From assembly GCA_016185525.1 (NCBI GenBank), contig JACPNK010000002.1, positions 11,616 through 75,615 on the forward strand: 64,000 nucleotides of DNA, in the 5' to 3' direction. The stretch comes from Candidatus Yanofskybacteria bacterium (GTDB taxonomy: Bacteria > Patescibacteriota > Minisyncoccia > 2-02-FULL-40-12 > IGHO2-12-FULL-4). The translations under genes and the position numbers were made by a program. This document shows positions 5,692 through 55,162 of the stretch, one piece after another (the stretch's first letter is position 1; every line of letters begins with the position of its first letter). The notes beneath the pieces were generated by a model. That model worked only from the letters and a program-made list of their open reading frames with translations, ran no database searches and was not told the origin of the DNA.

Positions 5692-7056
5692 ATGTCTCAA
5701 AGTTACGGGAAGAAATCTCTTATTATATTTCTTATTTCTCTTTTTCTCTTTTTTCTGGTCTATCCGGCCAGTTTTAATTTAAGCGCCGATTTTTTAAACT
5801 CAAAACTCAAGCTTGAAAAAGCCGGTTTCAGTATTCCCCACTTTTTCAATATCCCTTTTCGTCTCGGCTTGGATCTTCTGGGCGGTACCCATTTGGTTTA
5901 CAAGGCCGATGTTTCAAACTTGGTTGCCGGCCAAAGCTCCGCTGATGCAATGGAGGGAGTCAGAGATGTTATTGAAAGAAGGGTCAATATTTTTGGCGTG
6001 GCTGAACCGTTGGTTCAGGTTGAAGGAGAGGACAGACTGGTTGTAGAGTTGGCCGGAATCAAGGACATTTCAGAGGCAATTCGTTTGATAGGCGAGACTC
6101 CATTTTTGCAGTTTAAAGAAGAGCGTCCGGAGGCGGAGACGAACGCCATTTTAGAAGCTCAAAAAAAAGGCGATAAGCTGGATCAGGATCCTTACTTTAT
6201 TGATACTTCTTTAACCGGTAAATATCTTAACGGCGCCAGAGTTGTTTTTGGCGGAGGCGCAAGCCAGCTTTCGGGAGCGGAAGTTTCTTTGGAGCTGAAT
6301 GAAGAAGGCGGAAAGATTTTTAAAGAATTGACTGAAAAGAATTTAAATAAAAGATTGGCAATCTATTTGGACGGTGTGCCAATTAGCGCTCCGACCGTGC
6401 AATCTGTGATTCCTGACGGCAAAGCCGTTATCAGCGGCAATTTTAACATCAGTGAAGCCAAAGAACTAGTGACTCGTTTAAATGCCGGCGCTTTGCCGGT
6501 GCCGGTGTCTCTAATCTCACAGCAAAGCGTGGGCGCTTCTCTGGGCCGGGAATCTTTGGTCAAGAGCTTGAAAGCCGGAATTATAGGATTAATCTTGGTA
6601 GCTGTATTCATGGTTTTGTTTTACCGTTTGCCGGGTTTGGTTTCAGTCGCCGCCTTGCTGGTTTATGCGATTTTTGTTCTGACTTTCTACAAGTTGATAC
6701 CGGTTACTTTAACTTTGGCCGGTATTGCCGGTTTTATATTGTCTTTGGGTATGGCCGTTGACGCTAACGTTTTGATCTTTGCCCGAACGAGAGAGGAGTT
6801 AAGACAAGGAAAGTCTCTGAACTCTTCTTTCAGCGAGGGCTTTAGAAGGGCATGGCTTTCAATCAGGGATAGCCACGTAACTACGCTGATTGGCGCGATT
6901 ATTTTATATTTATTTACTACGTCTATAGTCAAGGGTTTTGCTTTGACTTTGGGTATTGGCGTGGCAATGAGTCTTTTTTCCGCAATCTTTGTGACGAAAT
7001 CTTTTTTGGCTCTTTTAATCGGTCCGTGGCTGGAAGGTAAAAAGTGGTTACTGTAA
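5692..7056 (+). CDS. secD: protein translocase subunit SecD
   Basis: Domain order and a C-terminal 6-TM block typical of SecD. It sits immediately upstream of secF. Confidence 0.85.
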   Translation: MSQSYGKKSLIIFLISLFLFFLVYPASFNLSADFLNSKLKLEKAGFSIPHFFNIPFRLGLDLLGGTHLVYKADVSNLVAGQSSADAMEGVRDVIERRVNIFGVAEPLVQVEGEDRLVVELAGIKDISEAIRLIGETPFLQFKEERPEAETNAILEAQKKGDKLDQDPYFIDTSLTGKYLNGARVVFGGGASQLSGAEVSLELNEEGGKIFKELTEKNLNKRLAIYLDGVPISAPTVQSVIPDGKAVISGNFNISEAKELVTRLNAGALPVPVSLISQQSVGASLGRESLVKSLKAGIIGLILVAVFMVLFYRLPGLVSVAALLVYAIFVLTFYKLIPVTLTLAGIAGFILSLGMAVDANVLIFARTREELRQGKSLNSSFSEGFRRAWLSIRDSHVTTLIGAIILYLFTTSIVKGFALTLGIGVAMSLFSAIFVTKSFLALLIGPWLEGKKWLL

Positions 7057-9187: not shown

Positions 9188-10444
9188 ATGTTGGAAGATC
9201 TTATTTTTGGCCTAGACCTAATAATAAACTACTGGTGGGTTTATATGCCTGTTCTGCTTTTGCTTGGTTTTTATTATGCCTGGTTGGAATACATACAAAC
9301 CGAATACTTTAACTCTTTGAATTGGACACTGTTGCATATTAAACCGCCACCGGACGTTGACCGAAGTCCTAAAGCCGCCGAGCAGATTTTTGCTGGTCTC
9401 CATGGGATATTTGTCAAGCCTGTGAGTTGGAAGGAAAAACTTTTCAAAGGCAAAATACCCGATTGGTTTTCTATAGAGATAGTCGGTCAAAACGGGGTTA
9501 CTAATTTTTACATCAGAACGCTGACAGATTATAAAAACGTAGTTGAGTCCAACGTCTTTGCCCAATATCCGGATGCCGAAATTAATGAAGTTGCAGACTA
9601 TATTAAAGAATGGCCGAGGAAGCTTCCAAATGAGGAATATGATCTTTTTGGGTCGGAGTTAATTTTAAGCAAAGAAGATGCTTATCCGATACAGACATAT
9701 CCGGCTTTTGAAGAAAAAATGGCTGGCTTGGAGCAGATCAAGCGCTTGGATCCGCTGTCTTCTCTTACCGAGGTTTTCAGCACCTTTCGTCTTGGAGAAT
9801 ATTTTGTGATTCAACTGCTGATCCGGCCGGTTGGCGACGACTGGGTAAAAAAGGCCCAGGAACCGCTGGACAAATTGCTTGGCAAAGAGTCAAAAAAAGA
9901 AGAAAACTTGATAGAGTCAATGTTTAATCAGATCGACAAGGTTTTTTTGCCCGGTGTTGAGGAAAAAAAGGAAGATAAAAAAGATAAAAAACTTTCTGCT
10001 CCGGAAGAGGAAATGGCCAAAGCTATCGGCAGAAAAACTTCAAAGATAGGTTTTGAGTCTGGCATCAGGCTGGTGTATGTATCAAAAAAGGAAGTTTTTC
10101 ACCGTTACCACTTTGCGGCGGTTATGGGGGGTTTTAAGCAACTCGCTACGGCCAACTTGAACAGCTTTAAAGTCAACAAAAAAACCCTGACTTACTCAAA
10201 AGGCATTTTTGCCGGCCCGTTTCCTTCGGATAAAGGTTTTCTTGCTGAACAAAAGACATTTGAAAAGAAAGTTAATCTTTTTGGATATTTAAAAAACAGA
10301 GTGTTTACTCAAAAAGTTTTTGTTCTTAACGTTGAAGAACTGGCTACGATTTTTCACTTGCCCGGCATAGAAGTGCAGGCGCCGATGCTGCCCAGAGTGG
10401 AGGCAAAAAAGGGCCAGCCCCCGGCAGGTTTGGGTATGGAATAG
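9188..10444 (+). CDS. membrane-anchored protein (1 N-terminal TM), putative partner of the downstream VirD4-like ATPase
   Basis: The N-terminal hydrophobic helix is followed by a charged soluble domain. It is separated from the ATPase gene by only 18 nt. Confidence 0.45.
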   Translation: MLEDLIFGLDLIINYWWVYMPVLLLLGFYYAWLEYIQTEYFNSLNWTLLHIKPPPDVDRSPKAAEQIFAGLHGIFVKPVSWKEKLFKGKIPDWFSIEIVGQNGVTNFYIRTLTDYKNVVESNVFAQYPDAEINEVADYIKEWPRKLPNEEYDLFGSELILSKEDAYPIQTYPAFEEKMAGLEQIKRLDPLSSLTEVFSTFRLGEYFVIQLLIRPVGDDWVKKAQEPLDKLLGKESKKEENLIESMFNQIDKVFLPGVEEKKEDKKDKKLSAPEEEMAKAIGRKTSKIGFESGIRLVYVSKKEVFHRYHFAAVMGGFKQLATANLNSFKVNKKTLTYSKGIFAGPFPSDKGFLAEQKTFEKKVNLFGYLKNRVFTQKVFVLNVEELATIFHLPGIEVQAPMLPRVEAKKGQPPAGLGME

Positions 10445-10462
10445 TTAACGGAAATAATTTTT

Positions 10463-12070
10463 ATGGACAACGACAAAGTATTATTTGGAGAAATTAACTT
10501 CCGCAATCAGCGGTCTCGTTTTGGCATTAAGCAGGGCGATCGTGATCGTCATATGTATGTCATTGGAAAGACCGGTATGGGTAAGACGGAAATTTTGAAA
10601 AATATGGTTATTCAGGATATTCAGGCTGGCCGGGGAGTGGCTTTTATTGACCCCCACGGTGATACCGCTGATGATTTGCCTAATTTTGTGCCTAAAGAAA
10701 GGATAAAAGATGTCATCATTTTTGACCCTTCTGATCTAGACTTTCCCATCGCTTTTAACGTTATGGACCAGGTGGACGACCGTTTCCGCCACTTGGTCGC
10801 TTCCGGTTTGCTTGGTGTTTTTAAGAAAGTTTTTGGCATTGAGGTGTTTTCAGCTCGCATGGAATACATTCTCAACAATACCATCTTGGCTTTGCTGGAG
10901 TTTCCCGGAGCGACTATTTTGGGCATTAATCGCATGCTTGCCGAAAAACAATTTCGTGAAGCTGTGGTGGAAAAAATTACCGATCCCTTGGTAAAAGCTT
11001 TCTGGACGCAGGAATTTGCCAAGTACACTGATCGTTTGGCTTCGGAGGCGACGGCTTCAGTGCAAAACAAAGTTGGCCAGTTCACTTCTTCCAGTCTCAT
11101 CCGCAATATTTTAGGACAAGTTCACTCTACGCTTGATGTACGCAAGGTTATGGACGAAAAGAAAATTTTAATTATGAATCTTTCAAGAGGCAAGATTGGC
11201 GAGGATGTGAGTCGGTTGTTGGGTGCCATGATGATTACCAAAATTCAACTGGCCGCCATGTCACGGGCTGATATTCCGGAAAAAGAAAGAGCCTCATTCT
11301 ATTTATATGTTGACGAATTCCAGCATTTTGCCACCGAATCTTTTGCTAACATTTTGTCTGAAGCCAGAAAATTCGCGCTAAATTTGGTCATCGCCCACCA
11401 GTACATAGCGCAGATGGAGGAAGAGGTGCAAAAAGCGGTTTTTGGCAACGTTGGTACGATTGTTACTTTTCGCATTGGCGCTGAAGACGCGGAAATTTTG
11501 GAAAAAGAATTTGCTCCTGACTTTACGGAAAACGACCTGGTGAATTTAGCCAAATGGCAGATTTATCTGAAGTTAATGATAGATGGTGTGGCTTCCAGAG
11601 CTTTTTCCGCCAATACTCTGCCTCCTTGGCCAAGACCGGACATTAGCTATGCCGAAGAGATACTTGCTTTTTCCAGAGAAACTTATGCTCATCCGAAAGA
11701 GGAAGTTGAGAAGCAAATTGGCGAATGGTCGGCCAAGTTAATTCAGCCGGAGATTAGAAAAGAACCACCCCAAAGACCATACAGTCAGTTTCAGCAGCCA
11801 TTTCAACCGAGAGAAAAGGTTTATGGTTCCGGCGTTTATCCACGGCTTCCAACACAACAAAAACCGGCTTCTTTGCAGGAAGCCATAAGAAGCGGTCCGG
11901 TTGATTTCAGGGGCAGAAAAATTATGCCACCGGCTCCTGTTTTAGAAAAAAAACCTACCACTTCTTCAGAAAAAGCTACTGTTGATTTGCAAAGTTTGAG
12001 GCAGACCCTTGGCCAGATAGTCAATAAAAATACTGATTTAAAAGATAAAGATGAATCTCAATCAAAATGA
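10463..12070 (+). CDS. soluble VirD4/TraG/TraD-family-like ATPase (type IV secretion system DNA-binding domain-containing protein)
   Basis: Walker A VIGKTGMGKTE and Walker B LYVDEFQHF. The block ARKFALNLVIAHQYIAQM...VFGNVGTIVTFRIGAEDAEILEKEF resembles the TraG-D_C region. There are no TM helices. Confidence 0.6.
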   Translation: MDNDKVLFGEINFRNQRSRFGIKQGDRDRHMYVIGKTGMGKTEILKNMVIQDIQAGRGVAFIDPHGDTADDLPNFVPKERIKDVIIFDPSDLDFPIAFNVMDQVDDRFRHLVASGLLGVFKKVFGIEVFSARMEYILNNTILALLEFPGATILGINRMLAEKQFREAVVEKITDPLVKAFWTQEFAKYTDRLASEATASVQNKVGQFTSSSLIRNILGQVHSTLDVRKVMDEKKILIMNLSRGKIGEDVSRLLGAMMITKIQLAAMSRADIPEKERASFYLYVDEFQHFATESFANILSEARKFALNLVIAHQYIAQMEEEVQKAVFGNVGTIVTFRIGAEDAEILEKEFAPDFTENDLVNLAKWQIYLKLMIDGVASRAFSANTLPPWPRPDISYAEEILAFSRETYAHPKEEVEKQIGEWSAKLIQPEIRKEPPQRPYSQFQQPFQPREKVYGSGVYPRLPTQQKPASLQEAIRSGPVDFRGRKIMPPAPVLEKKPTTSSEKATVDLQSLRQTLGQIVNKNTDLKDKDESQSK

Positions 12071-13337
12071 CAAGTGGATTCCTTGGCCTGGAATTGGCCA
12101 AGTTAATAAAAAACCCATTGCCTCTATAGTTGATAACCACTATTTCCGACGCTTAAGCGACAAGCGTCAGCTCTCTCTTGCTTATTTAGTTTTTCCTGGC
12201 GCAACTCATGACCGTAGACAGCATTCTCTGGGCGCCTACTACAGGACGTCTCAATTTACTGCTAAAATGGTCAAGCTAGGTGTTTTGACCAGCCAAGAAG
12301 AGGTCAACTTAAATCTTTATGCTCTTTTGCATGATATTGGACATGGCCCATTGTCCCATGTTATAGAAGTTTTTACTGAACGTAACCATCATACCAACGG
12401 ACTGAAGATTTTGGACAAGATGGTTGATGACATTGAAGCCTGCGGCGGTGATCTGGAATTGATAAAAAAATATATGTCCAGACAGGATCCCAAAGGCAAA
12501 ATTGTTGATGACAAAAATTTTGGCATGGAAAAACTTGACTACCTGATCAGGGATCAGGAATCTACACAGTTTGGACCCAATATCCGCTATTGCGTAGAAA
12601 GTGTTTTCAATCACCTTGATTTTAGAGACGGCCAGTTGGCGGTTGACCTCAAAGCCCTGGATTCGGCCATGGAAATCCAAAGGGCTTATATTTATTTTTA
12701 TCGCAATGTGCATTTGGAGAAAAGCAACTATCTTATCCAGCGCTTTATGCAGAAACTCATCTATCAGCTGTTGCATACGTCTCGCAATCAAGGCGGTATA
12801 GGCGAAGACGAGCTGTGGGAGATGGTAGACGGCGACTTGATTCATGCTTTGAAAAAATGCCAGAACGAATCCGTGAGAAACGGCATAAAAATTTTTGATA
12901 GCGGTGTCAAGCATTTTCCCAAAACGGCCATATCAATACGTCTTAAGAGTTATGGTTGGCTTGAAAGACGTGCCGGCAAATCGATTGATGTTTACGAGGC
13001 TGACAAAGAATTTTTTGAAAGATTTTATGAAAAATCCAGCCCAAGAGATCTGGAAATTATTGAGTCGCAAATCGCTAAGGCGCTTGGTTTAGAAAGCTGG
13101 CAGGTGGCGGTTAGTCACATTGTTGAGCGTGATCGCTTTATCCCACAGGATATTCTGTTTTTTGACGGTCCGAAAACCTACTCTTTAAAGGAAAAAGATC
13201 CGGCCTATTTTAACTTACTTGACAGAGAAGTGGAGAAGTATCTCTGTGTTAGAATTTGTGCTGTGCCGGAACACAGGCAGAAAGTTACAACGGAGAAAGA
13301 AAGACTGCTTAATATGCTTTTGAACTATGTCAAATAA
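12051..13337 (+). CDS. HD-domain dNTP triphosphohydrolase-like protein (dGTPase/SAMHD1-like, COG1078-type)
   Basis: FRRLSDKRQLSLAYLVFPGATHDRRQHSLGAYY and LLHDIGHGPLSH, with a DYLIRD motif downstream. Confidence 0.65.
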   Translation: MNLNQNDKWIPWPGIGQVNKKPIASIVDNHYFRRLSDKRQLSLAYLVFPGATHDRRQHSLGAYYRTSQFTAKMVKLGVLTSQEEVNLNLYALLHDIGHGPLSHVIEVFTERNHHTNGLKILDKMVDDIEACGGDLELIKKYMSRQDPKGKIVDDKNFGMEKLDYLIRDQESTQFGPNIRYCVESVFNHLDFRDGQLAVDLKALDSAMEIQRAYIYFYRNVHLEKSNYLIQRFMQKLIYQLLHTSRNQGGIGEDELWEMVDGDLIHALKKCQNESVRNGIKIFDSGVKHFPKTAISIRLKSYGWLERRAGKSIDVYEADKEFFERFYEKSSPRDLEIIESQIAKALGLESWQVAVSHIVERDRFIPQDILFFDGPKTYSLKEKDPAYFNLLDREVEKYLCVRICAVPEHRQKVTTEKERLLNMLLNYVK

Positions 13338-13423
13338 ATAATACTGTGGTTAGTTGCCGGTTGTTTTGGGATTTTTTTAGTGCTAATCTGGTAGAAGGTC
13401 ATTGAAAAGTTTGGAGTGACGAG

Positions 13424-14407
13424 ATGTCAGAAGACGAATCCGGTGGCGGGGGAGATTTTCGCAACCTTTTCAGAGCCGGAGAAATTCTATCGTTTTTGGT
13501 TTTTGCCTTTCTCATTGTCGCTTTCTTTATATTTTTAAATCAATCTGAAGACCAGATACCAAACAAAGGATCGCCGGGAGATTTACCGTCTTACGCAAAA
13601 TTAGAAAAAGAAATAGACCTTTTGATTTTGGAAATTAGAAATAGCGGGACTCTGCCTCCGCTGGAAGACGATTTTGAGATGGATGAATCTGTTGACTTGG
13701 AGTCACAAGACTATAATATTGTCCTAGAACATGAAAAAACAAAGCAGTATCTTGAACTCGTTCTTGCAAATTTACAAAAAGATTTTTCAGAGGAGTGGAA
13801 AAACAGGGTTTTAAAACTTCGTCTTTACGACGACCGTTTTGTCGGCAGAACCAACAATGCTTTTGCTCTGCCGGCTGAAACTATTTATGTTGGTATTACC
13901 CAAATAATGTGGGTTAACAATGAAGCCGAACTGGCGGCCCTTTTGAGCCATGAAGCTAGCCACATTAAGCTTAGACATGTAGCCGAGTCCAGAAGAGTAG
14001 TTAAAAATCTTACCGTTTTTGCCCAAAAAGCCTTCCTTGCAAAGGATTTTGAAAAAGTCGTACTTTTGGGCCTAGCCGCGCAAAAGTTATTTGGCTATAA
14101 CGGGTTTGTGGGTATTCTGCCTCTAGAGTATGAAAGTGAGGCTGACAAAAATGGTCAGGCCATGCTTAGAAATAGCGGTTACGACGACCTTGCTTTGGTA
14201 GGTTCTCTTGAAAGAATTAAAAAGATGTACAACAACAACCTTTTTTCACAAATTATGCAAAAGAGGATTCGTGACCTAAAGGATAACAGCAAAAATAAAT
14301 CGGATTTAAACGGCAGAGGCAAGACTTTTATTGTTTCAAAAGAGGAAGATTTGAGGCTGATTCAAGCAACACTCCAACAATTTCTTAACGACCTTGCGCT
14401 TAAATAA
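13424..14407 (+). CDS. membrane-anchored HExxH zinc metallopeptidase-like protein (M48/M56-like)
   Basis: An N-terminal TM, LSHEASHIKLRH (HExxH) and an acidic EYESEAD block downstream. Confidence 0.45.
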   Translation: MSEDESGGGGDFRNLFRAGEILSFLVFAFLIVAFFIFLNQSEDQIPNKGSPGDLPSYAKLEKEIDLLILEIRNSGTLPPLEDDFEMDESVDLESQDYNIVLEHEKTKQYLELVLANLQKDFSEEWKNRVLKLRLYDDRFVGRTNNAFALPAETIYVGITQIMWVNNEAELAALLSHEASHIKLRHVAESRRVVKNLTVFAQKAFLAKDFEKVVLLGLAAQKLFGYNGFVGILPLEYESEADKNGQAMLRNSGYDDLALVGSLERIKKMYNNNLFSQIMQKRIRDLKDNSKNKSDLNGRGKTFIVSKEEDLRLIQATLQQFLNDLALK

Positions 14408-14480
14408 GCGCATTTTAATTTGCTAAAGTCGTTTTTTTGTAATAAAATAGGTTTTAATTAGGTAGACTATCAAATACTGT

Positions 14481-14718
14481 CGGTCTTCCAAATATTGCTT
14501 TTTCCGGACGCTCGTCCCGCTCCAGCGGCGGGACTCGCTCTTTGTGAGATGTGGATTCTGTCCAGCTTAAGAAAGCTGTCCAGACCACGCCATTGAACTT
14601 ACAGCTTATCCGTCCCTATCGGTCCGAATGGGCTGTAAGATTCAATGGCTAGCAACCTGCCTGTCGGCAGACAGGTCCACAACTCACAGAGCCTACAAAA
14701 GCAATATTTGGAAGACCG
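14481..14718. mobile_element. MITE-like element with perfect 22-bp terminal inverted repeats (cggtcttccaaatattgcttttt / aaaagcaatatttggaagaccg)
   Basis: The TIRs can be read directly from the sequence. The 195-nt interior is hairpin-rich and GC-rich and has no ORF. A 25-nt fragment of the same end recurs at 25455-25479. Confidence 0.45.
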
Positions 14719-14780
14719 TAAACTAACAATCCGCCCGTAGCCCTGCCTGCCGGCAGGCAGGTCAGTTGGCGAAGATTAGT

Positions 14781-15017
14781 ATGTTTTTTGTGTACGTTCT
14801 TAAAAGTGAAAAAGATGGCAATCTTTACATTGGTATGACCAACGACTTGAAACGTAGATTGAATGAGCATAATTGTGGCAGAAACTTGTCTACAAAATAC
14901 AGAAGACCATTTAGGTTAATATACAGTGAAAAATTAAACGACAGGGTCAAGGCTAGATATAGAGAAAAGTTTTTAAAGTCTGGCACTGGAAGAGAGTGGA
15001 TTAAAAATAACTTATAA
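14781..15017 (+). CDS. GIY-YIG nuclease domain protein (YhbQ-like, 78 aa)
   Basis: FVYVLKSEKDGNLYIGMTNDLKRRLNEHN is a GIY-YIG motif. The ATG at 14781 is preferred over the TTG at 14766 in the track. Confidence 0.7.
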   Translation: MFFVYVLKSEKDGNLYIGMTNDLKRRLNEHNCGRNLSTKYRRPFRLIYSEKLNDRVKARYREKFLKSGTGREWIKNNL

Positions 15018-15030
15018 CAATTATAACCAT

Positions 15031-15105
15031 CCGCCCGTAGCTCAGCTGGTAGAGCAACTCCCTTTTAAGGAGATGGTCGTTGGTTCGACTCCAACCGGGC
15101 GGACA
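15031..15105 (+). tRNA. tRNA-Lys (anticodon TTT), CCA not encoded
   Basis: Cloverleaf folded by hand. Acceptor ccgcccg/cgggcgg, D-stem gctc/gagc, anticodon loop cTTTTaa, T-arm gttgg-ttcgact-ccaac, discriminator A. Confidence 0.8.
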
Positions 15106-22354: not shown

Positions 22355-23086
22355 TCATTTTTTGCTAAGACTGTCCAATCTTACTGATTTTCTAATGTTG
22401 TATCTGCCAATTCCGGTTCTGATAAGTTTTTCCAGATATCCGCCGGTCTTTAAGACTTTGCCTAAGTCATGGGCAAGTGAGCGAATGTATGTGCCGGAGG
22501 AAACTTTAGTTTCAATCTCTAAATAGGGCCACTTATATTTTAAAATTTTGATTGAGTAAATTTTTACTTTTCTTGGTTTTAATTCGGGTGTAATTCCGCG
22601 GCGGGCAAGTTCGTAGGCTTTCCTGCCTTTAATCTTGACGGCGGAAAACAAGGGGGGAGTTTGTATAATTTCTCCTGTAAATTTTTTCAAAACTTCTCTG
22701 ACTTTAGGCAAATCAGCTATACCACCTACCTTCGACCCTCGACTTGTCGCTCGGGAATTTTCAGGTAGGTGTATAGCTGATTTGCCACCAGAAATCCCTT
22801 GAGATTCTATTTGTTTTATGTGTCCGGTTAAATCTCCGGTGTCAGATTCCGCTCCGAGTTTAATTGTTGCTTTATAAGTTTTGTCCATCTTCAAAAATTG
22901 TCCCAATTTCTTAGTGTATTCCCGTCCTACGGCCACAATCAAAACCCCCTCGGCAAAAGGATCAAGCGTGCCAGCATGGCCGACTCTTTGTTCTCCGCTT
23001 AACTTTCTAATCTGATTAACGATGTCATGCGAAGTCGGCCCAGCCGGTTTGTATATGTTGTAGATACCGCATTTTAACTTTTTCAT
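22355..23086 (-). CDS. truB: tRNA pseudouridine(55) synthase
   Basis: GHAGTLDP catalytic motif. The track's N-terminal extension MPLATFTAL... is encoded by repeat A1, so the start is placed at the MKKLKCG methionine. Confidence 0.75.
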   Translation of the reverse strand: MKKLKCGIYNIYKPAGPTSHDIVNQIRKLSGEQRVGHAGTLDPFAEGVLIVAVGREYTKKLGQFLKMDKTYKATIKLGAESDTGDLTGHIKQIESQGISGGKSAIHLPENSRATSRGSKVGGIADLPKVREVLKKFTGEIIQTPPLFSAVKIKGRKAYELARRGITPELKPRKVKIYSIKILKYKWPYLEIETKVSSGTYIRSLAHDLGKVLKTGGYLEKLIRTGIGRYNIRKSVRLDSLSKK

Positions 23087-25270: not shown

Positions 25271-25432
25271 AAGCTTCGCAGATACAGCCTTTTCGGTACT
25301 TTCGCTGATTCCAGCGATCAGCTCACTCACTGTTCGCTCGGGTTGTGGAAGGAGTCGAAGAAATATTATACTCCTTCCAACCTAGCCAACCGCGAGCTCA
25401 CAGTGACCTCAAAGGCTGTATCTGCTACGCTC
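25271..25432 (+). repeat. structured repeat family B, copy 1
   Basis: Terminal dyad cgcagatacagcctttt / aaaggctgtatctgc. Three internal hairpins covary with the copies at 55001 and 31454. Confidence 0.6.
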
Positions 25433-25454
25433 TCTAGTCACACTAACAAGAAAC

Positions 25455-25479
25455 GAGCGTCCGGAAAAAGCAATATTTG
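25455..25479 (+). repeat. solo 25-nt fragment matching the end of the MITE-like element at 14481-14718
   Basis: gagcgtccggaaaaagcaatatttg is the reverse complement of 14488-14512. Confidence 0.5.
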
Positions 25480-31453: not shown

Positions 31454-31613
31454 AGCACAGCAGATACAGTCTTTGAGGTCGCTGTGAGCCTGCGGTTTGC
31501 TTGGTTGGCTGGAGTATAATTATTCTGTAACTCCAGCCAAAACCCAGACGAACAGCGAGTGAGTCTGCCGCTGGAGCAGACGAAGGTACCGAAAAGACTG
31601 TATCCGCGAAGCT
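31454..31613 (-). repeat. structured repeat family B, copy 3 (inverted orientation)
   Basis: Its reverse complement aligns along the whole length with the copies at 55001 and 25271. Confidence 0.6.
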
Positions 31614-52078: not shown

Positions 52079-52933
52079 ATGTCTTGGCAAACCTTGGGTT
52101 TTCAGAAAAACAAGGAATTTTTTGAAAAAATTGTCCGAAATGGTGAGCTTGGCCACGCTTATTTATTTACAGGTCAAGAGATGATAGGCAAGAAAAGATT
52201 TGCTCTGGATCTGGCGGGTCTGGTCAATAGTTCTGGAATTGACTTTGAGAATGACCCAAATCTTTTGATTCTGGGTGGTGAAAATGGAATCTCCATTGAC
52301 CAAGTTAGAGATCTTAAAAAGTTTTTAAGTTTTAAGCCTTATAGCGGTAGTTACAAAATTGCTGTCATAAACGATTGCCATCTTATGTCCCAAGAGGCGG
52401 CTAATGCCCTTTTGAAGGTTTTGGAAGAGCCGGCTTCTCATTCTTTAATTATTCTAGTTACTTCAAATCCAAATTCTTTACTGCCGACAATTTATTCCCG
52501 TTGCGAAGAGATAAAGTTTGAGCCCCATATCCGCAGTCAACTACTTGGTCATTTAAAAGACATGGGACTAAGCCAGACTCAAGCTGAATTTTTGGCCGAT
52601 TTTTCCAATGGCCGTCCGGGACTAGCTTTCAGGTTAAAAGAAAAAAACAGCTTTAAAGAAATAAAAACAAAACTGGAGCAGTTTAATAAACTTTTAAAAT
52701 CAGATATAAATGAACGCTTTAATTTTGCGGAGAAAGCCTTACAGGAAAAAGAAGACCAAAACTTAAGCACGCTACTTTTGTACTGGATGTTTTATTTAAG
52801 GTCAGATTTGTCTAAGAGCTTGAAAATAAACCGAGGTAAAGTTTTAAAAAGCCTGCTGGAAGTGAATTATATTTTGTCCAAACCGCAATATAACCATAGG
52901 TTGGCTTTTGAAAATTTTTTATTGAGCTTGTAG
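52079..52933 (+). CDS. holB: DNA polymerase III delta' subunit-like AAA+ clamp-loader protein
   Basis: GHAYLFTGQEMIGKK P-loop-like block and SRC-type motifs (TSNPNSLLPTIYSRC). Confidence 0.65.
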   Translation: MSWQTLGFQKNKEFFEKIVRNGELGHAYLFTGQEMIGKKRFALDLAGLVNSSGIDFENDPNLLILGGENGISIDQVRDLKKFLSFKPYSGSYKIAVINDCHLMSQEAANALLKVLEEPASHSLIILVTSNPNSLLPTIYSRCEEIKFEPHIRSQLLGHLKDMGLSQTQAEFLADFSNGRPGLAFRLKEKNSFKEIKTKLEQFNKLLKSDINERFNFAEKALQEKEDQNLSTLLLYWMFYLRSDLSKSLKINRGKVLKSLLEVNYILSKPQYNHRLAFENFLLSL

Positions 52934-53164
52934 TTGGCATATTGATTCTTCAGTATGCTCACTCCGCCAGCGTCTCCGTTCGCTCGCGACGTCGGCAAAT
53001 TTGAAATGAAGTTAGGAAAAATTATACTTCATTTCAACCATGCAATTTGCCTCCTCAGCGACTTCAGAACCAATATGCCAACTACAAGCTAAGTCTGGTG
53101 ACAGCGAGTTTTCGCTAGAAGAAAACGAGTATCCGTAAAAAACAACAATTACAAAGCAAAAACC

Positions 53165-55000: not shown

Positions 55001-55162
55001 AAGCTTCGCAGATACAGCCTTTTCGGTACTTTCGCTGACTCCAGCGATCAGCTCACTCGCTGTTCGCCTGGGTTTTGTCTGGAGTTACAGAATAATTATA
55101 CTCCAGCCAACCAAGCAAACCGCAGGCTCACAGCGACCTCAAAGGCTGTATCTGCTGCGCTT
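55001..55162 (+). repeat. structured repeat family B, copy 2
   Basis: About 90% identical to the reverse complement of 31454-31613 and about 75% identical to 25271-25432. Confidence 0.6.

Follow-up and report, generated by a model that had tools for sequence, protein, structure and literature searches.

The DNA analyzed here is a 64,000-nucleotide (nt) stretch from a Candidatus Yanofskybacteria bacterium (contig JACPNK010000002.1), hereafter called the window, in which the leader of a tRNA-Lys gene is interrupted by a block of 569 base pairs (bp; positions 14460–15028, + strand) that is missing in the closest relatives. The block comprises a structured element (E1), a tRNA fragment with a palindrome, an open reading frame (ORF) for a GIY-YIG nuclease and a spacer. 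It is probably foreign DNA made up of two unrelated parts, namely E1 and a selfish nuclease cassette of ~300 bp, which belongs to a cross-phylum class and would have spread in a homing-like manner. E1 is one of multiple copies of an intergenic element, highly structured and strand-specific, that occurs in Yanofskybacteria-type genomes of the candidate phyla radiation (CPR). An initial annotation of the window had described this region as an element resembling a miniature inverted-repeat transposable element (MITE), abutting a GIY-YIG gene that is bracketed by a short tRNA duplication. Its observations are confirmed with small corrections, and its interpretation is partly supported.

A Block Inserted Between the tRNA-Lys Promoter and Gene

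Orthologous loci were retrieved through homologs of the HD-domain protein encoded at 12051–13337, whose identity to the window protein amounts to 95% in L131, 90% in L132 and L133, and 81% in L134 (L numbers denote the loci and contigs used for comparison). All four relatives share the gene order of the window (HD, M48, tRNA-Lys, a protein of ~190 amino acids (aa), Ddl, AspRS), and the tRNA-Lys site is empty in 4/4. In the window, a terminator-like hairpin spans the stop codon of the M48 peptidase gene (hairpin 14395–14412, + strand; gene 13424–14407) and is followed by a promoter-like TTGCTA-17-TAAAAT (14420–14448, + strand). Both were found by a consensus scan, and the hairpin sequence is kept in L131 and L132. 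In L131, L132 and L133, the M48 hairpin and the promoter-like site are followed by ~15 nt and then directly by tRNA-Lys, while L134, empty too, has a diverged leader. We take the TTGCTA-17-TAAAAT site as the putative ancestral promoter of tRNA-Lys.

The window agrees with the empty alleles up to 14459 and again from 15029, just ahead of the intact tRNA-Lys(UUU) (15031–15104, + strand; called by ARAGORN, 68.9 bits with the Rfam tRNA model). Positions 14460–15028 therefore form an insertion that separates the tRNA-Lys promoter from the gene. At its right-hand end, the spacer caattataaccat (15018–15030, + strand), which leads from the ORF stop to the tRNA, stands in place of the ancestral leader aatttaa of L131 and L132; the equivalent place in L007 reads caattataatt. 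Filled tRNA-Lys sites were found in L007 and L008. The proposal that a GIY-YIG segment was inserted directly upstream of tRNA-Lys with partial target duplication thus holds, given the empty sites in L131–L134 and an architecture that recurs at many tRNA genes.

Short-read Logan contigs from the window's own strain (L001–L006, L135, L136) break at 14459, 14520, 14563, 14654, 14769 and 15059. These breakpoints correspond to the insertion junction, the interior of E1 and the palindrome; the repeats visibly fragment assemblies. Contigs L002 and L005, from two samples of the same study, stop at 14459, the last base common to the empty alleles, which would fit a filled/empty branch of the assembly graph. 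No empty allele is readable in the window's own samples, where contigs with the downstream gene begin only at 14769 or 15059.

The Cassette at tRNA-Lys

The insert is flanked by a partial and a complete tRNA copy as direct repeats. The 13-nt string atccgcccgtagc, noticed early at 14729–14741 and 15029–15041, is indeed present at both places and forms part of a longer repeat (TAACAATCCGCCCGTAGCCCTGC versus TAACCATCCGCCCGTAGCTCAGC; 23 nt at 87% identity, 300 nt apart). The left part of the partial copy (14724–14741, + strand) consists of a leader-like TAACAAT and tRNA positions 1–11, in direct repeat with 15024–15041. Directly after it lies a perfect 20-bp palindrome, CCTGCCTGCCGGCAGGCAGG (PAL; 14742–14761), past which tRNA homology resumes (TCAGTTGGCGAAG versus TCAGCTGGTAGAG). 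The fragment therefore represents tRNA-Lys positions 1–24, split after position 11, with its right part (positions 12–24, TCAGTTGGCGAAG; 14762–14774, + strand) carrying 4 mismatches to the local tRNA. Because of the palindrome and the resumed homology, the bracketed 287 bp hold more than the GIY-YIG gene, which the initial annotation had considered their sole content.

The gene itself (14781–15017, + strand) encodes, as annotated, a GIY-YIG protein of 78 aa. The product is UPF0213-like and consists of the catalytic domain only (Pfam PF01541, residues 1–71; E = 1e-16, 61 bits versus a cutoff of 22.6). Residues Y5, Y16, R26, H30 and E62 are invariant across 27 GIY-YIG homologs, and the nearest solved structures, 1ywl (E = 2.8e-6) and 1zg2 (E = 7e-6), display the similarity to UPF0213/YhbQ members. 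No separate DNA-binding domain was found in the 78-aa protein, and the group I intron endonuclease model TIGR01453 reaches 21.9 bits versus a cutoff of 56. Codon differences between the ORFs of the window and L007 are 11 synonymous and 5 non-synonymous; on this comparison, the ORF is under purifying selection.

The two other filled tRNA-Lys sites display the same organization. In L008, which belongs to a distant Yanofskybacterium, a tRNA-Lys fragment carrying PAL where the window has it precedes the ORF and tRNA-Lys, and an extra fragment lies further upstream. In L007, whose protein is 94% identical, the module occurs in tandem with a period of 300 bp. PAL position and fragment end are identical in the window, L007 and L008; the corresponding right part of the fragment reads TCAGTTGGTAGAG in both L007 and L008. 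In the window and L008, fragment position 7 (the partner of position 66) has the state of the local tRNA; in L007, which has no intact tRNA on its contig, position 7 agrees between the two fragment copies. Right of PAL, the window fragment has 4 mismatches in 12 nt, with T16 as in L007 and L008 versus C16 in the local tRNA. A left part that follows the local tRNA and a right part that shares T16 with L007 and L008 suggest that PAL separates duplicated recipient DNA on its 5′ side from DNA brought by the element, which would be the remaining fragment and the ORF, in what is a small sample with an ill-defined right-hand end.

Two further structures were seen next to these modules. At 5903–5950 of L008, ahead of the module, lies a third copy of the tRNA-Lys 5′ end (atccgcccttagcc) that has no ORF and leads into a different hairpin; it may be the remnant of an earlier cassette. 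Upstream of the tandem modules of L007 (~803–980), a stretch is closed by an inverted repeat (GAGGTCATCTCAAAACCCT ... AGAGGTTTTGAGAGGACCTC) that gives no match to the E-family model. Hairpin-rich elements seem to accumulate upstream of these cassettes.

Partial-tRNA direct repeats around an insert are exactly the structure that a single crossover would leave, as with integrating elements (PMC9897764). A passive, Campbell-type integration is thus conceivable, with a small circle of tRNA fragment and ORF moving in and out by host homologous recombination within the tRNA homology, and the nuclease carried as cargo, possibly as an addiction or defense gene. Tandem arrays, as well as insertions at both the 5′ and the 3′ side of tRNA genes, would be expected from such a process. 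However, the homology measures only 10–45 bp, a poor substrate for RecA-dependent integration, and no tyrosine or serine recombinase is encoded between the tRNA repeats, where the GIY-YIG gene is the only ORF. Passive integration would also leave unexplained the universal PAL and the link between nuclease clade and tRNA class described below. We regard it as quite improbable.

Cassettes at tRNA Genes in Many Phyla

A protein-seeded scan of one genome per GTDB species, with seeding by protein similarity alone, yielded 80 loci with 97 ORF hits. They come from CPR lineages, Bacteroidota, Ignavibacteriota, Omnitrophota, Planctomycetota, Margulisiibacteriota, and metagenome-assembled genomes (MAGs) labeled Gammaproteobacteria. 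A tRNA gene on the same strand adjoins 71 of the 97 homologous ORFs: in 52 cases the tRNA starts at most 60 nt downstream, 7 ORFs are upstream units of arrays that terminate at a tRNA, and in 12 the tRNA ends at most 160 nt upstream. Elsewhere in the 444 kb of surveyed loci there are only 18 tRNAs. The partners include tRNAs for Leu, Arg, Asn, Phe, Lys, Thr, His, Ser, Ala, Ile and Met.

The geometry seen in the window recurs in these loci. Upstream of the ORF lies the 5′ part of the neighboring tRNA, in a copy that starts at about position +1. PAL splits this copy after a position p of 7–32, mostly in the D-loop; homology resumes at p + 1 and ends at a position q of 19–46. The end of PAL is ~24 nt from the ATG (range 10–100). 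Left of PAL, the fragments differ from the local tRNA by 5 mismatches in 436 nt. Seven loci (L026, L045, L049, L050, L081, L023, L062) are of a mirror 3′ type, in which the intact tRNA is followed by the ORF and then by a 3′ tRNA part with PAL, with exact repeats of 29–58 nt; an Algoriphagus species is among the carriers of this type. Tandem arrays occur in L033 (Zunongwangia atlantica 22II14-10F7), with four identical units ahead of tRNA-Arg(TCG), and in L018, L017, L076, L070 and L007.

Protein clustering follows both the palindrome type and the tRNA class. The repeat types are CCTGCC..., CCCTCCGAATCGGAGGG, CCCGCC...GGCGGG, and the different repeat TTTACGTGGC / CACGTGGCGCCGCCA, and the position of PAL is constant within protein subclades. 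A clade with the motif "RNYIYVG" sits at tRNA-Leu in CPR, Ignavibacteriota, Bacteroidota and Omnitrophota, another at tRNA-Arg(TCG) in Flavobacteriia, while the window, L007 and L008 have tRNA-Lys. The TTTACGTGGC / CACGTGGCGCCGCCA motif takes the place of PAL in a separate GIY-YIG clade (N-terminus MY(Y/H)VY...; L020, L030, L031, L065, L074). It is found ~200 nt upstream of the ORFs, often in several copies, and this clade is usually not directly beside a tRNA.

Strict co-orientation with tRNA genes and likely co-transcription would also be expected of an ordinary host gene that is tied to tRNA genes by a role in tRNA or DNA repair or in RNA processing, in which case the tRNA fragments would be decayed local duplications. 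A role of bacterial Slx1-like GIY-YIG proteins in RNA metabolism was earlier suggested from a TrmH fusion (PMC1564403). Yet the gene is missing in relatives whose HD protein is 81–95% identical, its distribution across phyla is patchy at protein identities of 50–59% between phyla, and it occurs in tandem arrays of identical units and with many different tRNA partners, at modules where contigs often break. An ordinary host gene is therefore a very improbable explanation.

The Palindrome

The same PAL 20-mer splits tRNA fragments beside GIY-YIG ORFs in many phyla, as a clean insertion in the copy of the neighboring tRNA (gap 0, offset 0). The window holds only two PAL-like sites, at 14742 and 14656, both within ~130 nt of the GIY-YIG ORF. 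The second (14656–14675) is a palindrome-type insertion, CCTGCCTGTCGGCAGACAGG, located in E1 between GCAA and TCCACAAC. It differs from PAL by 2 substitutions and accounts for exactly 20 extra nt in E1, which are missing at the same point in the E1 homologs L090, L091, L092 and L095. Across the surveyed loci, 58/63 PAL-like sites lie within 150 nt of a GIY-YIG ORF.

This close association could mean that PAL and the GIY-YIG protein act like repetitive extragenic palindromes (REP) and their RAYT transposases. The nuclease, as the mobilizing enzyme of PAL, would then nick the palindrome and insert it into nearby structured DNA such as tRNA fragments and E1; the tRNA would be a safe and well-transcribed harbor, and the duplications would be by-products of palindrome-induced breakage and repair. 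Besides the proximity of the palindromes to the ORFs and the window PAL in a structured element that is not a tRNA, this explanation would accommodate the nested or tandem PALs in L014, L015, L082, L019 and L034, the covariation of protein clades with palindrome type, the clean insertion of PAL without target duplication, and full-length tRNAs split by PAL alone in L081 (a tRNA-Leu) and L120. By itself, however, it explains neither the specificity of protein clades for tRNA class nor the constant place of the ORF at the duplication junction, and a viral-contig PAL without a nearby GIY-YIG gene does not fit it. We also know of no GIY-YIG transposase in prokaryotes. On balance, we consider a REP/RAYT-like system unlikely, and prefer the reading as homing-like cassettes.

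Exact PAL copies were also detected in 35 IMG/VR contigs (L096–L130; 42 sites), mostly high-GC viral contigs. These sites are intergenic, often in low-complexity DNA, and some are nested in larger palindromes or stand beside short direct repeats. In L120 (2239–2330; also in L097 around 8616), a full-length tRNA-Met has PAL in its variable-loop region and is still called by ARAGORN as a 92-nt tRNA. Such a PAL would resemble a long extra arm, which the tRNA might tolerate.

PAL was also considered as an adapter or assembly artifact. We dismissed this option, as PAL occurs in RefSeq records of named strains and at positions that are consistent within protein subclades; no sequencing adapter with the PAL sequence is known to us.

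The Structured Element E1 and Its Family

E1 (14481–14718, + strand) is a long-form copy of a multi-copy structured intergenic element, with a closing helix formed by 14481–14502 and 14697–14718 and a family core at 14491–14708. The perfect 22-bp inverted repeat of the initial annotation is present, with arms that are 100% complementary over 22 nt; the left arm ends at 14502 rather than 14503, and 194 nt rather than 195 separate the arms. No equal match for the arms occurred in 100 shuffles. The enclosed interior is, as described, hairpin-rich and without an ORF of note, and it folds far more stably than shuffles (z = −12.9 on the + strand and −12.4 on the − strand). Despite this strong fold, Rfam 15 gave no match at gathering threshold on E1 in a scan of the whole window, and no relevant match at E ≤ 10 on E1, L095 and a short-form copy. 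At neither threshold did E1 match group I or group II introns, RNase P, signal recognition particle RNA, 6S RNA, tmRNA or HEARO, and these identities were rejected. A retron was discarded as well, with no reverse transcriptase gene nearby and a closing helix that is common to a multi-copy family.

Metagenomes were scanned with a 20-mer taken from the shared stretch at the 5′ side of E1, which retrieved four true homologs in unrelated gene contexts (L090, L091, L092, L095); viral sequences scanned for two conserved E-family motifs gave no match. Common to the homologs are TATTGCTTTTTCCGGACGCTCG, a 7-bp hairpin with the invariant loop UCCAGCG, GAATGGGCTGTAAG, and AGCAATCCACA..CAGAGCCTTCAAAAGCAATA. 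An alignment of five sequences gave a consensus of 83 pairs, 28 of them compensatory. A covariance model of the family (R1) was then run on the window and its relatives. It scores E1 with 215 bits on the + strand versus 33 bits on the − strand, and detects at least five copies in the 64-kb window, in line with the early view of a multi-copy element, as well as further copies in L131 and L134. Besides E1, the window copies are short-form ones: 25281–25422 in the uvrB/ruvA intergenic region (+ strand; 64 bits, E = 2e-15; fold z = −7.9), 31463–31604 (− strand; 66.9 bits), 52938–53077 (+ strand; 45 bits) and 55011–55152 (+ strand; 56 bits). The long form of ~200 nt is represented by E1, L090, L092 and L095; the short form of ~140 nt is without a 63-nt hairpin.

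The fragment that had been noted as a lone 25-nt copy of the E1 terminus is present, as an exact match of 27 nt in which 14489–14515 equals the reverse complement of 25453–25479. It is not a solitary terminus; it represents a reversed 5′ fragment of an E1-type copy (− strand; ~38 nt at 89% identity to L090) beside the different, short-form copy at 25281–25422 on the + strand. Two other candidates were set aside: an 80-nt match of L095 to 22708–22785 of the window proved to be conserved TruB coding sequence, and for a supposed uvrB-proximal minus-strand copy ending at the uvrB start codon, the covariance model puts the real copy on the + strand.

Across 11 E sequences, 93.4% of cells are paired versus 75.7% in shuffles, a value that 0/500 shuffles reach. 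Compensatory changes affect 47/73 pairs, compared with 26±3 for shuffles and no more than 12 for slid controls. Several G·U pairs do not vary, and this holds for one of the two strands only. By this covariation and its absence from Rfam, the E family is a new, strongly covarying structured intergenic repeat family of CPR genomes. The copies mostly lie 1–20 nt past the stop codon of a co-directional gene. Occupancy varies among relatives: E1 itself is missing in L131–L134, the HD/M48 interval holds a copy in L131 but not in the window, and L134 has one between two upstream genes. At the HD/M48 intergenic site (window 13338–13423; L132 5836–5870), genomes without an E copy show GGTTAGTT or GCTTAGTTTG. 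This motif resembles the left outer arm of the L131 copy and in L132 overlaps the HD stop codon; it could be a deletion remnant or a native target.

The strong covariation, the conserved loops (UCCAGCG, AGCAA) and the strand-specific G·U pairs would also suit a gene for a trans-acting small RNA of a paralogous family. The lack of target-site duplication, and of conserved transposase-type ends past 12 bp, points in the same direction. Against a small-RNA gene stand the number of copies in 64 kb and their two size classes, near-identical cores in the unrelated contexts of L090 and L092, and the differing presence at orthologous sites. Helices of 19–22 perfect bp are moreover unusual for functional small RNAs, and the copies follow stop codons rather than promoters of their own. 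For E1, this alternative seems to us a minor one, and we retain the reading as an intergenic repeat.

The description of E1 as MITE-like with TIRs needs correction. The supposed TIR is the helix that closes a conserved structure with covarying pairs. Only its inner ~12 bp (AATATTGCTTTT / AAAAGCAATATT) are common to the long-form copies, and in short-form copies the closing-helix sequences have diverged yet still pair. The outer arms, ~10 bp in E1, are copy-specific: they differ in every E copy and yet remain complementary. In the copy at 52938–53077, the outer arms (52926–52937 and 53078–53089) pair perfectly over 12 bp. Here, the left arm, GCTTGTAGTTGG, takes in the TAG stop of the upstream ORF (end 52933) and the codons just before it, and the right arm is a perfect inverted copy of the coding 3′ end and stop of that gene. 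E1 resembles MITEs in being short, non-coding and multi-copy, with filled and empty orthologous sites. It has neither conserved TIRs shared with an autonomous insertion sequence (IS) nor a target-site duplication; the flanks of E1, L090, L092, L095 and L131 are without such a duplication and instead form inverted repeats. No transposase gene with E-type ends was found in the loci examined, and thus no parent IS. Without target-site duplication and parent IS, E1 is not a classical TIR-type MITE.

Landing of E copies in pre-existing palindromes or terminators was rejected as the origin of the arms, with empty sites that have no palindrome and one left arm that is coding sequence. The outer arms were therefore made at or after insertion. 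Template switching at quasipalindromes is an established mechanism, and the outer ~10 bp of the E1 helix may have arisen in this way, if replication extended the hairpin arms into the adjoining DNA. What had been described as a "perfect 22-bp TIR" thus combines a helix of the family with a local extension.

Proposed Mechanism

From left to right, the cassette region consists of tRNA positions 1–11, PAL, positions 12–24, ~6 nt, the ORF, ~13 nt and the intact tRNA. The insertion is harmless because a full tRNA copy survives. With the promoter located upstream of the block and no terminator found inside 14460–15028 by consensus scan, the tRNA promoter probably drives transcription of the ORF, whose transcript would be parted from the tRNA by RNase P cleavage. 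In a process akin to homing, the nuclease would stimulate recombination or gene conversion that brings the cassette into its cognate tRNA gene, with PAL probably serving as its site of action or as the terminus of the element. Tandem arrays might result from repeated conversion or from unequal exchange between the direct repeats. For homing-type cleavage and conversion, the only signs, and indirect ones, would be the match of protein clades to tRNA classes and the replaced leader. The homing-like event outside an intron context suggested in the initial annotation is plausible.

Several points weigh against this proposal. Neither nuclease activity, nor a target site, nor a transfer event has been observed. 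The protein is without a DNA-binding domain, unlike the characterized GIY-YIG homing endonucleases, and if the tRNA is the target, the intact copy would stay cleavable, with no immunity mechanism evident. By strict criteria, 23/97 ORFs have no adjacent tRNA, several of them in the clade with the different flanking repeat. The split position p and the fragment end q vary between sublineages within the ranges given above, so there is no single insertion site. Exact viral PAL copies are near a GIY-YIG gene in 1/42 cases and near a tRNA in 1/42; PAL can therefore exist independently. The block may also have come as one piece by ordinary homologous recombination. For E1, structure at the level of RNA and at that of single-stranded DNA are indistinguishable, and no mobilizing enzyme was found.

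It is a serious possibility, somewhat short of probable, that the cassettes are an undescribed cross-phylum class of autonomous mobile elements of ~300 bp. Each would pair a bare GIY-YIG nuclease with a cognate 20-bp palindrome as one terminus and insert into tRNA genes with a tRNA-preserving duplication of ~10–45 bp. Lineages would be specialized for tRNA classes, and the palindrome would also be able to jump alone into other structured RNA genes.

Other Features Near the Locus

L131 has an insertion of its own at the 3′ end of tRNA-Lys (10010–10850; ~1.4 kb directly after the gene). The tRNA 3′ end gggcggaca is repeated ~0.8 kb downstream with several small ORFs in between, an arrangement reminiscent of a small element that integrated at the opposite end of the tRNA-Lys gene. 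In L134 (1–2673), a Cas4-like/RNase H-like gene and an rve-family integrase lie a few kb upstream of the syntenic block.

Significance and Comparison with Known Systems

A search of full-text literature, including one for the palindrome string, returned no description of the cassette or the palindrome, although absence there is no proof of novelty. The cassette appears to be an undescribed relative of free-standing homing-type nuclease genes, with a substantial chance that it represents a distinct class of minimal mobile element. If the cassettes are autonomous mobile elements, they are smaller than any insertion sequence known to us. If the cassette moves as proposed, it would be a minimal selfish element that hits an essential gene and spares it by carrying a duplicate of the target end. 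A bare GIY-YIG domain could then have target specificity, because the protein clades track tRNA class, and such a compact, possibly structure- or palindrome-guided nuclease would be of biotechnological interest. The cassette also accounts for many genes for a "GIY-YIG nuclease family protein", and for pseudo-tRNA fragments and contig breaks beside tRNA genes in genomes and MAGs of CPR, Bacteroidota, Ignavibacteriota and other phyla. The E family is a second, separate result.

With REP/REPIN sequences and their RAYT transposases, the cassettes share a short, GC-rich, multi-copy palindrome that co-varies with the small dedicated nuclease gene that it flanks, as well as clean insertions and nested or tandem palindromes. 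In contrast to that system, the nuclease has a GIY-YIG fold instead of HUH/Y1, the gene has the palindrome at a single side only, the cassette is strongly linked to tRNA genes, and one identical palindrome occurs across phyla.

Free-standing GIY-YIG homing endonucleases are known from T4-type phages as Seg proteins, with SegB encoded in the T4 tRNA gene cluster (PMC2330249). The likeness to the cassette lies in an intron-free GIY-YIG nuclease gene among tRNA genes, in presence/absence polymorphism at a conserved site among related genomes, and in preferential inheritance together with flanking DNA, which for the cassette is presumed. Seg proteins and I-TevI possess DNA-binding modules, whereas the cassette protein is a catalytic domain of ~78 aa only. 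The cassettes further differ in their cellular hosts from many bacterial phyla and in the position of the gene inside a partial tRNA duplication with an accompanying conserved 20-bp palindrome.

The closest relatives by structure, the stand-alone UPF0213/YhbQ-type proteins (1ywl, 1zg2), have the same single-domain size and correspond to the "Slx1 cluster" of the 2006 GIY-YIG superfamily survey, to judge from its available sections (PMC1564403). Those sections report no tRNA-linked, palindrome-linked or mobile members of the cluster, and leave a link of the superfamily to tRNA genes unmentioned.

Islands and prophages of the integrase type that reside in tRNA genes leave a partial and a complete tRNA copy as attL and attR (PMC9897764). 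The cassettes resemble them in these direct repeats and in a tRNA that remains functional. They differ in the size of the insert (~250–300 bp versus 9–100 kb), in having no tyrosine or serine recombinase, and in a duplication that usually involves the 5′ part of the tRNA, with a lineage-variable repeat length and a partial copy split by a palindrome.

For E1, the appropriate comparison is with ERIC/IRU, Correia, RUP and BOX, which are structured, MITE-like intergenic repeats. Like these, E1 belongs to a non-coding family of 140–240 nt with many copies, an intergenic or 3′ untranslated location and insertion polymorphism between strains, and its long closing helix would be an RNase III-type substrate if transcribed. 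E1 has no sequence or Rfam relationship to them and no target-site duplication. It is further set apart by terminal repeats whose outer half is copy-specific, and by a multi-branched core with conserved loops and a much stronger covariation.

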